Positions 23,863-27,265 of a stretch of DNA of 49,897 nt are shown here, in pieces; position 1 is the first letter of the stretch, and each line of letters opens with the position of its first letter. Below the pieces are notes generated by a model. That model was not told the DNA's origin. It saw only the letters and a program-made list of their open reading frames with translations, and searched no databases. The DNA lies in the NCBI GenBank assembly GCA_029240715.1, contig JARDZR010000002.1, positions 1 to 49,897 of the forward strand. Direction: 5' to 3'. The stretch comes from Gammaproteobacteria bacterium (GTDB lineage: Bacteria > Pseudomonadota > Gammaproteobacteria > Francisellales > CACEW01). The position numbers and the translations under genes are program-made.

Positions 23863-24891
23863 TTACTTGGCTGAATTCTGCTTAATTCCATATTGGCTAA
23901 AAGGCAAAATTTGCTGGTTGTCTAATGGATAGACTGATTGGCCTTTAATAAGGGCGTAATAGTACTTCCTGACCTTAGTCTGAACCTCGGTAGCAGGATG
24001 TAAATAAGGCTCCCATTCATAGACAGGAATATCATAGCTTCTTTCCAAAAAGAAAAATGGAATTTTCTGTCTTTTAGCAATTGAGCTGACTATTTTATCA
24101 GAATCTTCAACTGGCTCTTGCTCATGTTCGCTTTTAGCAAATTCATAAAAAAGCTTCATCTGGGCTTCATCACAGACAACAAGCCAGCTAATTTTACCTT
24201 TGGCATCCATTAACAAGAAGTTACCTGTATTCTCCAACAAGTAAAACTCAACTATTTTATTTTGCTCAATGATTTTATAGAACAATTGGCTAAATTCGGG
24301 GTCATTAAGGAAGCTAGGGGCAAAAGCTTGATTATTTTCAAGTGCAACAGTCAATACCCGTGATAAGTCCAGATAGTATTTAAGCTGCATTTCATAAATA
24401 GCTTTATTAACCTCTTCGATCATATCAGAGGCGCCTTTCATGATAAATTTATCAATAACGCCTTCATTAAATGCCTGCACTGCAATCGCTGCATCGGCTT
24501 CACCAGTTAACATAATTTTTTTAATGTCGCGGTTTTTTATTTGACGGCAAAATTCAACCCCGTTCATACCTGGCATTGAGTAATCGACTAGGGCAACCGT
24601 TATTTCTGAAAATCGATGAGGATTAAACAGTTCTTTATAAATTTGTCGAAGGTCAATTTTAAGCTCAGGTTCATCTTGGGCAATAGCACTATTATGGATA
24701 ATGCAGCGATCAGTAAAAGGTTCTACCTGGTATTTCCTGATGAACTCCAAAGCCTCAAAAGGATTTTGATAGGGCAGGCAGCTTGAACAGGCGCTAAGTT
24801 GCAAAGCTAATGATTTAAGGAAATGCACATCATCATCAAGTAAGATTATAGTGCTAGGATGGTAACAGTAGGGGATTTGATTGATAAGCAT
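23863..24891 (-). CDS. LqsR-family response regulator
   Basis: 342 aa; IPYCYHPSTIILLDDD, NPHRFSEITVALVDYSMPGMNGVEFC (phospho-Asp), IKKIMLTGEAD...AFNEGVIDKFI, IVEFYLLENTGNFLLMD. These motifs, their spacing and the length match what I recall of Legionella LqsR. Confidence 0.85.
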   Translation of the reverse strand: MLINQIPYCYHPSTIILLDDDVHFLKSLALQLSACSSCLPYQNPFEALEFIRKYQVEPFTDRCIIHNSAIAQDEPELKIDLRQIYKELFNPHRFSEITVALVDYSMPGMNGVEFCRQIKNRDIKKIMLTGEADAAIAVQAFNEGVIDKFIMKGASDMIEEVNKAIYEMQLKYYLDLSRVLTVALENNQAFAPSFLNDPEFSQLFYKIIEQNKIVEFYLLENTGNFLLMDAKGKISWLVVCDEAQMKLFYEFAKSEHEQEPVEDSDKIVSSIAKRQKIPFFFLERSYDIPVYEWEPYLHPATEVQTKVRKYYYALIKGQSVYPLDNQQILPFSQYGIKQNSAK

Positions 24892-24935
24892 TTTAAAGAC
24901 CCTTAGCTCTAGTTTTGCTAAATAAGATTATAGCT

Positions 24936-26504
24936 TTAATTTTCATAATTTTGTTCAATTACTGGAAATGAAAGAATAAAATGTGCAAATTCTCCCTCAA
25001 CAGACTGGCAGCTGATATTTCCATTAAAGGTGGTCATTACCATTTTACAAAAAGCCAGACCCACCCCGGTACCATGGCGAGTTCTGCTATAAAACTGTTC
25101 AAAAATATGCGGCAGAATATCAACTGGAATGCCTTTTCCAGTATCTTTAAAATGCAAGTTGTTGTACTCCGCCCCTTGCTCAAGCCATATGTCAATATTG
25201 CCTTTGCCTGCAGCAGTAACATAGTAGATAGCGTTTTTAAGCAAATTAAATAGCACATAAGTAATTAACAGCTCATCGCCTTTAAAAAAGAAATTATTGC
25301 TGCCATTCCACTGTACCAGTCCTCTGCCGCCTATATTGAAAGGATATTGTTTTAAAGCCTTTTCAACACAATTCGCCATAGAAAGGGTGGTGATATTAGT
25401 GGGCTTGGTTTGCTCTAGGTTAACTTTAGCCAATAGCATATTAATAAAGGTATTCGCTGAATTAATAATTTGGTTAAAGTCATCAGGAAGGGTTTTTAGT
25501 GATTCAATTTGAGCATGGGTAATGCTGCTCACAGGCAGCTCATGTTGCTCGGCTAGCTGATAACCTTCTATGAGGGCGGGAAGAAATACTTTAATAGCGG
25601 TTGATAATGCACTGATTGAAGCTAAAGGCGTCCTTAGCTCATGGGCAATGGTGGCTGCCAGCATTTTCATGGTTTGGACTTTTTCTTCAGATACTGCTTT
25701 TTCTTTTTCAAGTTTTTCAGCTTGTTTTTTGCTGGTAATATCAAAAGCGATACCAAGCAGCCCTACAATATTGCCTTGATAGTCGCGCATAGGGACTTTT
25801 TGCGATAAGAAAAAAGAAGCGCTGCCGTCTTGATGAGTCAGCAATTCCTCAACGTTAACAGTTCGTCCTGTTGCCAGCACCTCTTGGTTAACTTTATGCA
25901 GCTCTTCGGCCACTTGCGGGGGAGTAACCTCGAAAACCGTTTTGCCTACAATGTCATCAGGCGACCTAAATCCCAAAATTTCAGCTTGAAGTTTATTGGC
26001 GCCCAAAATGACTTCATTTCGATCCAGCCAAAAGATATTGCCTTGTATATTTTCAAGAATATTATCAAGAGTAAGCTGACTGGTATTTCGCTCTTGTTTA
26101 AGCTTTTGTTCTTCTTTTTTTCGGTCGGTAATATCAAATGAAATACCTACTAAGCCAATAACTGCGCCAGATTGATCTTTAATAGGAATCTTTTTGGAAA
26201 GATAGGTTTTACCGTCAGCAAGAGGCTCTTCTAAAGTTGCCTCTATTCCTGTTTCCATTACCAAGTTGTCAGTAGCCTCAATGTTGCCGGCATCGTTTGG
26301 CAATAGTTCTTTGATGGTTTTACCAATAACTTCTTCGGGGTCTTTTAAACCTAAAGCTTTAGCCTGTTTGGCATTACAACCTAAATAATGGCCGCCTCTG
26401 TCTTTCCAGTAGATATTGCCCGGCATAATAGCGATAAAATTCTCGATATTGGGCCAGACACTAGATAATTTGCTAATGTTCTTTTTTGAACTTTTTTTAG
26501 TCAT
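24936..26504 (-). CDS. Soluble PAS-PAS sensor histidine kinase (LqsS/CqsS-like HisKA-HATPase core)
   Basis: Two PAS/PAC repeats (MPGNIYWKD...GISFDITDRK; IQGNIFWLD...GIAFDITSKK), H-box IAHELRTPL, N-box NLLKNA, DTGKGI, GTGVGLAFCK; no transmembrane segment. Confidence 0.92.
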   Translation of the reverse strand: MTKKSSKKNISKLSSVWPNIENFIAIMPGNIYWKDRGGHYLGCNAKQAKALGLKDPEEVIGKTIKELLPNDAGNIEATDNLVMETGIEATLEEPLADGKTYLSKKIPIKDQSGAVIGLVGISFDITDRKKEEQKLKQERNTSQLTLDNILENIQGNIFWLDRNEVILGANKLQAEILGFRSPDDIVGKTVFEVTPPQVAEELHKVNQEVLATGRTVNVEELLTHQDGSASFFLSQKVPMRDYQGNIVGLLGIAFDITSKKQAEKLEKEKAVSEEKVQTMKMLAATIAHELRTPLASISALSTAIKVFLPALIEGYQLAEQHELPVSSITHAQIESLKTLPDDFNQIINSANTFINMLLAKVNLEQTKPTNITTLSMANCVEKALKQYPFNIGGRGLVQWNGSNNFFFKGDELLITYVLFNLLKNAIYYVTAAGKGNIDIWLEQGAEYNNLHFKDTGKGIPVDILPHIFEQFYSRTRHGTGVGLAFCKMVMTTFNGNISCQSVEGEFAHFILSFPVIEQNYEN

Positions 26505-26527
26505 TACTATCTAAGGCCTAAGTTAGT

Positions 26528-27265
26528 TTATGCCGTTTCATACAGTTCAATTATTTGAGAAGGCTTATTTTTTTTAAGCTCAACTCGAATTTCCACCCAT
26601 TTCATGCAATGAGGATGATAGGGCTTGATCAGCGTGTCGTAAGTTAACTGCATTGCTGCAGGCCTATCAGCAGCAGGATAAAGAATATAGTTATAATCAT
26701 AAGCAGTCATCAACTGCATGACAGCACATTCTTCTTTCAGGTATTCTGCGCTGCACTTAAAAGCATTGGTACAATTTACTGGCTTATAGTTTCTATCTAA
26801 TCGCAACAAAAACTCTTTAACGCTTTCAAACATCGCTATTCTAAAGTTAGCATTTTTATCATAAAGCTCATCAATCATATCTTTCATAGAGCTATAATTG
26901 GAGTGATTAAGCCATTCATCCCAGCGAATAATAGTATGAGGAATAGTAAGGGAGTCAACAGCATGGCAATTTCTGGCTAGCCATTCATTGCCTGCTTTAA
27001 TGGATTGCTTATAATAGCTTTCATTAGAAGAGGCGTTTTCATCAAAAATCTTGAAAGTATGGCGATGCAGGCTATCACCCAATAAAATAGTGCATTTTTT
27101 AAAGCGCTCGTTAATTCTTTTAAGAGTGGCAGCAAATTTATCGCCATCACTTTTAGGCTGGCCAACAACGCTTACAGCCACCAAACAATGCGAAGAAGAA
27201 AATTGTGCTTTTTCTTCTTCTTCACAGACGAAGCGCACTCTAGATGGTATATGTTTAAAAGCCAT
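26528..27265 (-). CDS. tRNA-dependent cyclodipeptide synthase (CDPS), XYP subfamily
   Basis: 245 aa from the ATG at 27265 (SD AAGGGG). Motifs: CLVAVSVVGQ (catalytic Ser32), GDKFAATL...FKKCTILLGDSLHRHT, GNEWLARN, IIRWDEWL, EYLKEECA (Y-x-x-E-E), ILYP (Y-P of XYP). Confidence 0.85.
   Translation of the reverse strand: MAFKHIPSRVRFVCEEEEKAQFSSSHCLVAVSVVGQPKSDGDKFAATLKRINERFKKCTILLGDSLHRHTFKIFDENASSNESYYKQSIKAGNEWLARNCHAVDSLTIPHTIIRWDEWLNHSNYSSMKDMIDELYDKNANFRIAMFESVKEFLLRLDRNYKPVNCTNAFKCSAEYLKEECAVMQLMTAYDYNYILYPAADRPAAMQLTYDTLIKPYHPHCMKWVEIRVELKKNKPSQIIELYETA

Follow-up and report, generated by a model that had tools for sequence, protein, structure and literature searches.

A 49,897-nucleotide stretch of contig JARDZR010000002.1 (assembly GCA_029240715.1), referred to here as the window, was analysed from a soil bacterium that is a relative of Legionella and Coxiella and has a genome assembly of 1.37 Mb (77% complete). 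Three adjacent genes on the minus strand of the window were predicted to encode a cyclodipeptide synthase (CDPS), a soluble PAS-PAS histidine kinase and a response regulator of the LqsR family (Table 1). Judged from their sequences, these genes probably form a signalling unit, in which the product of the CDPS would be read by the kinase and relayed to the regulator. A first-pass annotation had described them as three co-oriented genes separated by 23 and 44 bp and had proposed such a role, and the minus-strand open reading frames (ORFs) are arranged as it described. In the proposed mechanism, the CDPS would take two aminoacyl-tRNAs and release a small 2,5-diketopiperazine, which the kinase would bind in the cytoplasm through one or both of its VqmA-like PAS domains. 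Such binding is suggested by the gene linkage, by CDPS-kinase fusions and by a conserved ligand-contact lysine. It would alter autophosphorylation of His288 and phosphotransfer to Asp103 of the regulator, which in turn would change cell physiology through a non-DNA-binding output, as has been proposed for LqsR. The level of the product would reflect aminoacyl-tRNA supply together with accumulation, through cell density or confinement in a host vacuole.

The first gene is assigned as a tRNA-dependent CDPS by its fold and catalytic residues, and cyclodipeptide formation is predicted. In a phmmer search against solved structures, its best match is PDB 5ocd (E = 1.2e-46), followed by other CDPSs. 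The AlphaFold2 model of the protein, with a mean predicted local distance difference test (pLDDT) score of 88.5, superposes on 5ocd with template modelling (TM) scores of 0.86/0.94 and a root-mean-square deviation of 1.3 Å, and all structure matches of the model listed down to rank 45 are CDPSs. The class-I aminoacyl-tRNA synthetase-like Rossmann fold of solved CDPSs is present in the model. Ser32 and Glu178, the presumed equivalents of S37 and E182 in AlbC, are invariant across 16 cassette CDPSs, and their codons were confirmed in the window. The Tyr196-Pro197 pair of the XYP subfamily is also present, in agreement with the XYP-type CDPS with a catalytic Ser32 of the first-pass annotation. 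This pair is not universal among the cassette CDPSs, as the rows of L018, L021, L026 and L028 differ. Among characterised enzymes, those nearest to it are reported to produce cyclo(Gly-Gly) and cyclo(Gly-Glu) (PMC12945691, PMC5816076). The Fdum-CDPS (5OCD) is reported to use two Gly-tRNAs (2026 review, PMC12945691), and an XYP enzyme of Legionella lansingensis is reported to make cGE (PMC5816076).

The second gene encodes a kinase with two PAS domains, HisKA and HATPase_c by Pfam (HATPase_c E = 1e-20). His288 lies in the motif AHELRTPL, with the N-box at residue 420, G1 at 454 and G2 at 478. A membrane or hydrophobic segment was looked for at the N-terminus of the kinase and not found, the N-terminal half being made up of the two PAS domains, and the earlier description of a soluble PAS-PAS kinase is therefore retained. 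Other metagenome-assembled genomes also encode kinases ahead of LqsR-like genes, and among the matches listed their cores are 43-46% identical to that of the window kinase.

Both PAS domains are most related to VqmA among solved structures. The best solved matches of PAS2 are VqmA 6ide, 6ugl and 6kju (E = 6e-11), with the next PAS domains at about 1e-4. For PAS1, VqmA 6ugl, 6kju and 6ide are the sole PDB matches at E ≤ 1e-3 (E about 5e-4). 6UGL is Vibrio cholerae VqmA with the autoinducer DPO (3,5-dimethylpyrazin-2-ol); F67 and F99 stack on the DPO ring, K101 hydrogen-bonds its carbonyl, and K101R is reported to abolish binding (bioRxiv 10.1101/2019.12.19.881847). By residues counted by hand on the printed alignments, VqmA K101 aligns with K236 in PAS2 and K105 in PAS1. 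S234 and K236 are invariant in 16 CDPS-linked kinases, and the motif [LV]S-x-K-x-P is present in the CDPS-kinase fusion proteins. Of 11 kinases located ahead of LqsR-like genes in loci lacking a CDPS, 10 gave no match to this pattern and one carries a near-form. The VqmA-type C-terminal helix-turn-helix (HTH) DNA-binding domain is absent, and the HisKA/HATPase_c core comes after the PAS domains of the kinase. A diketopiperazine has two amide carbonyls and no aromatic ring, which makes a pocket with Lys and Ser plausible.

The resemblance of the PAS domains to the DPO receptor VqmA, together with the presence of a Kbl gene in the genome, could also suggest that the kinase senses another small heterocycle, for example a DPO-like pyrazine made via Kbl/threonine dehydrogenase, and that its adjacency to the CDPS reflects shared regulation only. 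This is very improbable, however. The fusions and the conserved adjacency tie the kinase to the CDPS and not to kbl, and the stacking residues F67 and F99 of VqmA are replaced.

The third gene encodes a protein that matches PDB 6sy9 (E = 2.3e-63) over residues 5-334 of 342, covering the receiver and output domains. We take 6sy9 to be LqsR of Legionella pneumophila; a literature search for the code gave no match. All 8 sequences compared share the receiver residues D19-21, D103, T129 and K152. Neither Pfam nor the match to a solved structure indicates a recognised DNA-binding domain in the C-terminal output part, and the LqsR family is described as having no recognised DNA-binding domain in the available text of one source (PMC10653808). 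The regulator family was checked with a profile of alignment A3 run on five Legionellaceae genomes. Two of the five have a gene positive for NF005526 (568 bits, cut-off 428), and in both of them a regulator-family match lies about 200 bp from it. The regulator family is the family encoded beside LqsA in Legionella. The LqsR-like label of the first-pass annotation thus stands, on the match to 6sy9 and on the LqsA-type neighbour that the family has in these two genomes.

The same annotation had placed the CDPS in the slot of the signal synthase, and the distribution of the two families agrees with this. LqsR-like genes were found in 13 of 18 scored genomes of the bacterium's own family (24 matches), whereas NF005526, searched for LqsA/CqsA-type synthases, passes its cut-off in 0 of 20 family genomes (best score 199 bits against 428), the window's own genome among them being 77% complete. 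The three full-length class I/II aminotransferases of that genome are an aspartate transaminase, a 5-aminolevulinate synthase and Kbl.

The linkage of CDPS, kinase and LqsR-like gene, on which the first-pass annotation had built its proposal, is found again elsewhere. The window's genome has four CDPS genes. Three of the four are followed by a PAS-PAS kinase and two of those by an LqsR-like gene. Contig C88 carries a second complete cassette, with a CDPS, a 514-residue PAS-PAS kinase and a 339-residue LqsR-like gene product. On contig C25 the kinase after the CDPS runs off the contig end, and contig C127 ends within the fourth CDPS. Both LqsR-like genes of this genome are located in CDPS cassettes, and all three matches to the PAS-PAS region are CDPS-linked kinases. 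The same region gave 11 matches in the three genomes of the genus; all seven that span both PAS domains adjoin a CDPS, and the four single-PAS matches do not. The gene order of the cassette is syntenic in both other genomes of the genus. Across the family, 15 CDPS loci were found in 8 of 20 genomes, with a kinase adjacent or fused in 13 of the 15 and an LqsR-like gene adjacent in nine. Three of the other family CDPS loci are cut by contig ends, in addition to that on C127. The cassette of G008 is decayed in all three genes, with the CDPS frameshifted (two frames), the kinase split and the regulator truncated. In a second family of the order, the sole CDPS match (G067:C86) lies on a 1,123-base contig and is uninformative.

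To describe the relationships among these loci, IQ-TREE quick trees were built for 16 CDPSs, their 16 kinases and 9 regulators, with 6 Legionellaceae loci included; L023, L024, L025, L027 and C127 were left out as cut, degraded or kinase-less. The window cassette groups with G019:C10 and G018:C11 with support of 97, 99 and 99 in the CDPS, kinase and regulator trees, respectively, and C88 groups with G018:C9 with support of 99 in all three. The same clades are recovered in all three gene trees, indicating that the cassette was duplicated en bloc before the genus diversified. The Legionellaceae form their own clades in the CDPS tree (support 96) and the kinase tree (support 99), so the CDPS-kinase pairing appears to be at least as old as the split of the two families, or to have moved as a pair. 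Chance adjacency of the genes was considered and rejected, given the recurrence in paralogues and orthologues, the fusions and the congruent trees. With two or three such paralogues, a single small genome would have parallel channels using different cyclodipeptides.

The CDPS and the kinase also occur as single proteins. At least six distinct CDPS-PAS-kinase fusion proteins were identified (G009, G010, P0060, P0061/62, P0063 and P0064). The G009 fusion is 757 residues long, in the order CDPS, PAS, PAS, HisKA and HATPase_c, and is followed by an LqsR-like gene. A second fusion, G010:C178, is incomplete because its contig ends there. Five more came from searching the longer proteins with the CDPS profile, namely P0060 (849 residues, with a receiver domain), P0061/62, P0063 and P0064, and in these the serine motif ISVG and the glutamate motif KEEC/LEEC are retained. 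Every fusion has PAS domains between its CDPS part and its kinase core. A homologue search with the 757-residue fusion (the 'near' set) found only the query itself fused, the other matches being to the kinase part. In a 2010 paper, CDPSs were described as standalone enzymes without fusions, as far as its available text goes (PMC2922099). Some loci also encode transporters. In L021 and L022 the gene directly upstream of the CDPS encodes a small PQ-loop (SemiSWEET-like) protein (7109-7384 and 3570-3890, respectively, both on the minus strand). The C25 kinase, P0011 and P0016 carry a PQ-loop domain fused at their N-terminus, and in L153 the CDPS is preceded by a MATE gene. Such transporters in relatives favour a between-cell reading, whereas the fusions favour a cell-autonomous reading or a physical complex of synthase and kinase.

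A fusion of synthase and receptor fits classical between-cell quorum sensing poorly, and the fusions make a cell-autonomous reading, or direct contact between synthase and kinase, a serious alternative. Under this alternative, the CDPS would be an input module of the kinase. Its turnover or aminoacyl-tRNA occupancy would be read via contact or via locally made product, and the system would report amino-acid or tRNA-charging status rather than cell density. The recurrent fusions place the CDPS where sensor domains normally sit, and the kinase is cytoplasmic. A transporter gene is absent beside the window cassette, by the ORFs and Pfam matches of the window, which counts against a between-cell signal here. 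The peptide and aminoacyl-tRNA genes pepA and valS flank the cassette, though as ordinary housekeeping synteny. However, even the fusions retain the catalytic Ser and Glu without exception, so a product is presumably still made; every fusion retains the PAS domains in between; and PQ-loop and MATE transporters accompany some loci. We regard a purely cell-autonomous sensor as unlikely, with a chance that is still appreciable, and it overlaps cyclodipeptide signalling through the kinase more than it excludes it. In Xanthomonas RpfF-RpfC, the signal synthase is physically held by the sensor kinase in a between-cell system. This is a precedent for synthase-kinase contact in true between-cell signalling, although the proteins belong to other families and the chemistry is that of the fatty-acid diffusible signal factor (DSF). 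We know of no fusion of the RpfF-RpfC type.

Two-component regulators are common in natural-product clusters, and the kinase and regulator might in principle respond to an unrelated cue and do no more than regulate the CDPS gene, with the product serving another purpose such as host manipulation or antibiosis. Host-directed roles of CDPSs in intracellular bacteria were proposed by Aravind and colleagues (PMC2922099). Such cluster-situated regulation is improbable, because the regulator belongs to a family described as having no recognised DNA-binding domain (PMC10653808) and because it is hard to see why a pathway regulator would be fused to the enzyme under its control. The en bloc duplication and co-divergence of the three genes is the pattern of matched signal-receptor pairs, and the CDPS gene heads the unit rather than being a target with a promoter of its own.

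The Legionellaceae were also surveyed. The CDPS profile has a match (E ≤ 1e-8) in 75 of 199 scored genomes, and 18 of 57 strong matches were fetched as loci, with two more from another metagenome-assembled genome. Many of the Legionellaceae matches are proteins of 450-530 residues that cover only profile positions of about 100-220, such as G224:C8:269862-270200; these probably represent the 'cAA' CDPS group, described as having insertions and an extra C-terminal domain (PMC5816076). The main CDPS clade comprises 16 of the fetched loci, and in 14 of them a PAS kinase is the immediate neighbour, in tandem, divergent or convergent orientation. Of the remaining two, one has the start of a kinase at the contig end and one has no kinase. 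Eleven of these kinases are 811-839 residues long, and one that was scanned has the architecture PAS-PAS-HisKA-HATPase_c-REC-Hpt. The CDPS of L142 and the solved Fdum-CDPS, 5ocd, agree at 256 of 256 aligned residues, and the tail-to-tail neighbour of the L142 gene is a PAS-PAS-HisKA-HATPase-REC-Hpt kinase. It follows that the structurally characterised enzyme is encoded tail-to-tail with a kinase of this kind. Also adjoining the Fdum-type CDPS is a conserved ORF of about 360-420 residues with the motif NPGGGDCGFYAFA (L142 7250-8368, equivalents in L143-L151), and the L142 copy has no Pfam match. In L141 (G077), positions 3489-8567 encode a 504-residue LqsR-like protein, a divergent PAS kinase and a CDPS, with a FAD-dependent oxidoreductase directly downstream that may be a tailoring enzyme.

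Several results weigh against a cyclodipeptide signalling unit made up of the three genes. The curated CDPS profiles score below their cut-offs (Pfam PF16715, 18.6 vs 27 bits; TIGR04539, 41.4 vs 45); the CDPS assignment was kept because the fold and the match to a solved structure outweigh them. The stacking phenylalanines of VqmA are replaced in the kinase, F99 by S234 in PAS2 and S103 in PAS1, and F67 by Leu, as counted by hand on the alignments. The S-x-K-x-P motif is also found in multi-PAS kinases of unseen gene context. In the family, G019:C16 has a CDPS and kinase only, with no regulator, and the G018:C15 CDPS of the same genus as the window has neither kinase nor regulator. An adjacent LqsR-like gene occurs in only 1 of 20 fetched Legionellaceae loci, and none of the four loci of a second Legionellaceae CDPS clade has a kinase, their gene neighbours being biosynthetic-looking. 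A CDPS lies within 7 kb in only 1 of the 31 full-length LqsR-like loci listed from the species genomes. The product, its binding by PAS, the direction of kinase control, the phosphotransfer and the downstream effect are all steps that we infer. The signalling interpretation of the first-pass annotation can accordingly be kept in part. The identities, the soluble kinase, the exchange of the synthase and the linkage stand, but the diffusible signal of that annotation is only one possible reading, and the regulator is not a universal partner. The Legionellaceae hybrid kinase has its own REC and Hpt domains.

The LqsR-like genes extend beyond the CDPS cassettes. A scan of species genomes with the LqsR-like alignment A3, whose patterns miss the canonical Legionella LqsR, gave at least 31 full-length LqsR-like loci, most of them with a kinase directly upstream among the matches listed. 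The genes upstream of ten scanned kinase-LqsR-like pairs comprise three DUF3050/heme-oxygenase-like, two methyltransferase-like, one S-adenosylhomocysteine (AdoHcy)-hydrolase-like and one HTH-like gene, and three without a family. Because the upstream enzyme varies between loci, the CDPS cassette looks like one version of a modular 'enzyme + kinase + LqsR' design, and the variable enzymes may be alternative signal synthases. Examples of such variable upstream genes, among the loci L029-L059, are L038 4832-5710, L045 5060-5836, L032 4877-5632, L030 3819-4691, L036 4650-5588 and L041 4302-5390. A convergent gene of 218-250 residues follows the LqsR-like gene in several lineages (C88 9704-10360, minus strand; L029 4022-4723; L030 7964-8620; L032 8034-8783; L042 1614-2327), and the copy on C88 has a weak XRE-like HTH at its N-terminus. 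In two other lineages a kinase-LqsR-like pair without a CDPS abuts valS (L031 5182-10441; L050 4552-9571), and the valS neighbourhood may be an old home of the LqsR-like regulator.

The cassette shares features with several known systems. In Legionella Lqs and Vibrio Cqs, the synthase LqsA or CqsA, the kinase LqsS or CqsS and, as regulator, LqsR serve an alpha-hydroxyketone signal. A synthase, a sensor kinase and an LqsR-family regulator are likewise encoded together here. In contrast to the pyridoxal phosphate (PLP)-dependent LqsA/CqsA, the synthase here is a tRNA-dependent CDPS; the sensor is a cytoplasmic PAS-PAS region rather than the multi-pass membrane domain of LqsS/CqsS; and the signal would be a diketopiperazine, not a hydroxyketone. 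In the DPO-VqmA system of V. cholerae, a cytoplasmic PAS domain is the receptor of a small amino-acid-derived six-membered N-heterocycle, as is proposed for the candidate receptor here. VqmA is the best solved relative of both PAS domains, and its K101 is conserved. VqmA is, however, a one-component PAS-HTH transcription factor, whereas the PAS domains here feed a histidine kinase; DPO is made by the unlinked Tdh, whereas the synthase here is adjacent or fused; and F67 and F99 are not conserved here. Classical CDPS clusters such as AlbC/albonoursin, and Fdum-CDPS, share the enzyme family and fold. In the classical clusters the CDPS occurs with tailoring enzymes, whereas a sensor kinase is its constant partner here. 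The Ralstonia Phc/PhcX system is a precedent for an exchange of partners, as it also joins an LqsR-family regulator to a different synthase and kinase, as far as described (PMC10653808); the Phc synthase is a methyltransferase producing fatty-acid methyl esters, and the Phc kinase is not of this PAS type. For Shewanella baltica, cyclo(Pro-Phe) has been proposed as a quorum-sensing signal, according to a review (PMC13220807). Its receptors are LuxR solos without a linked synthase, whereas synthase and candidate receptor are coupled here.

The positions of the cassette features are given in Table 1. The cassette neighbours are lptF/lptG (on the other strand), a beta-lactamase-fold gene, pepA and, after the three cassette genes, valS, and both other genomes of the genus show this order too. 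The G+C content of the window is unremarkable. No classical tailoring gene adjoins the cassette, its flanks being pepA, the beta-lactamase-fold gene and valS, and the first-pass annotation was right on this point. A purine-rich AAGGGGAAAAACT precedes the start ATG of the CDPS gene at 27265. A longer CDPS ORF from a TTG at 27367 was rejected as unlikely, as the orthologues begin at the ATG position. The gap between pepA and the CDPS gene is only 22 bp in one congener. The promoter and terminator scan was uninformative: promoter-like sites numbered 13, where 11.2 would be expected, and terminator-like sites 9, where 5.0 would be expected. About 6 kb from the cassette, the window encodes a two-module nonribosomal peptide synthetase (NRPS) of 2059 residues (33411-39590, minus strand; A-T-C-A-T-TE by Pfam). 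An NRPS that forms dipeptides could likewise give a diketopiperazine or a dipeptide. A low-complexity ORF of 170 residues (20536-21048, plus strand), with no Pfam family, overlaps the end of valS on the opposite strand and may not be a gene.

Table 1. Features of the CDPS cassette and its upstream region, in window coordinates
Feature	Position	Strand	Remarks
LqsR-family response regulator, 342 residues	23863..24891	-	Asp19-21, phospho-acceptor Asp103 (24583-24585), Thr129, Lys152
Kinase-regulator gap, 44 bp	24892..24935	-	
PAS-PAS-HisKA-HATPase_c soluble histidine kinase, 522 residues	24936..26504	-	By Pfam; H288, N/G1/G2 boxes
Kinase core: dimerisation and histidine phosphotransfer (DHp) helix and ATP-binding domain (residues 409-515)	24960..25643	-	Phospho-acceptor His288 at 25641-25643
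Kinase PAS2, about residues 144-260	25725..26075	-	Motif LSQKVP at 233-238; Lys236 codon 25797-25799
Kinase PAS1, about residues 20-135	26100..26447	-	Pfam PAS_4/PAS_9; motif LSKKIP at 102-107
CDPS-kinase gap, 23 bp	26505..26527	-	No terminator-like site inside (scan overall not above chance)
CDPS gene, XYP subfamily, 245 residues	26528..27265	-	Catalytic Ser32 codon 27170-27172; Glu178 and Tyr196-Pro197 present
Region upstream of the CDPS gene, after pepA, 167 bp	27266..27432	-	May hold a promoter; promoter scan not above chance

Literature searches, with subscription journals outside their range, found no paper joining CDPS with LqsR, none joining CDPS, Legionella and two-component systems, and none joining cyclodipeptide synthase with Fluoribacter dumoffei. 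Within the same range, the literature joining CDPS, histidine kinase and response regulator consists of unrelated genome reports or reviews. The kinase neighbour of Fdum-CDPS is not mentioned in the available text of PMC12945691 and PMC5816076. In the accessible part of their paper, Skinnider et al. (2018) counted PAS among the non-biosynthetic domains that CDPS clusters contain most often and, from the analogy of the Vibrio system, suggested that the products may be quorum-sensing metabolites (PMC5767969). A 2026 quorum-sensing review, as far as its available text goes, presents diketopiperazines only with orphan LuxR receptors (PMC13220807). The first-pass annotation had known of no characterised dedicated locus for cyclodipeptides. 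None was found in the literature searched, but the idea of PAS domains and quorum sensing was already put forward by Skinnider et al. (2018) (PMC5767969). The new elements here are the association with LqsR, the existence of paralogous cassettes, the CDPS-kinase fusions, the homology to VqmA and the finding of a kinase next to the solved Fdum-CDPS.

A more far-reaching version of cyclodipeptide signalling can be put forward tentatively, with clearly less assurance than the unit itself. These cassettes would be the first dedicated synthase-receptor-regulator circuits for cyclodipeptides, in which a plain diketopiperazine autoinducer, re-entering or staying in the cytoplasm, is read by the VqmA-like PAS kinase and passed to the LqsR-family regulator. 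Two or three orthogonal channels of this kind would operate in small-genome, probably host-associated Legionellales-type bacteria. They would be one member of a wider toolkit of variable enzyme, kinase and LqsR, in which the other slots hold DUF3050/heme-oxygenase-like, methyltransferase-like and unknown proteins.

The status of diketopiperazines as true bacterial signals with their own receptors has long been disputed, and a conserved, duplicating and sometimes fused CDPS-kinase unit provides a concrete candidate for a synthase-receptor pair. In view of the fused forms, a kinase that senses the supply of aminoacyl-tRNA is also conceivable. Next to LqsA and Phc, the CDPS would be the third kind of signal synthase associated with the LqsR family, and PAS domains like that of VqmA may represent a broader class of cytoplasmic receptors for small amino-acid-derived heterocycles. 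The unit also offers a role for the puzzling CDPS genes of intracellular bacteria that have no tailoring enzymes.

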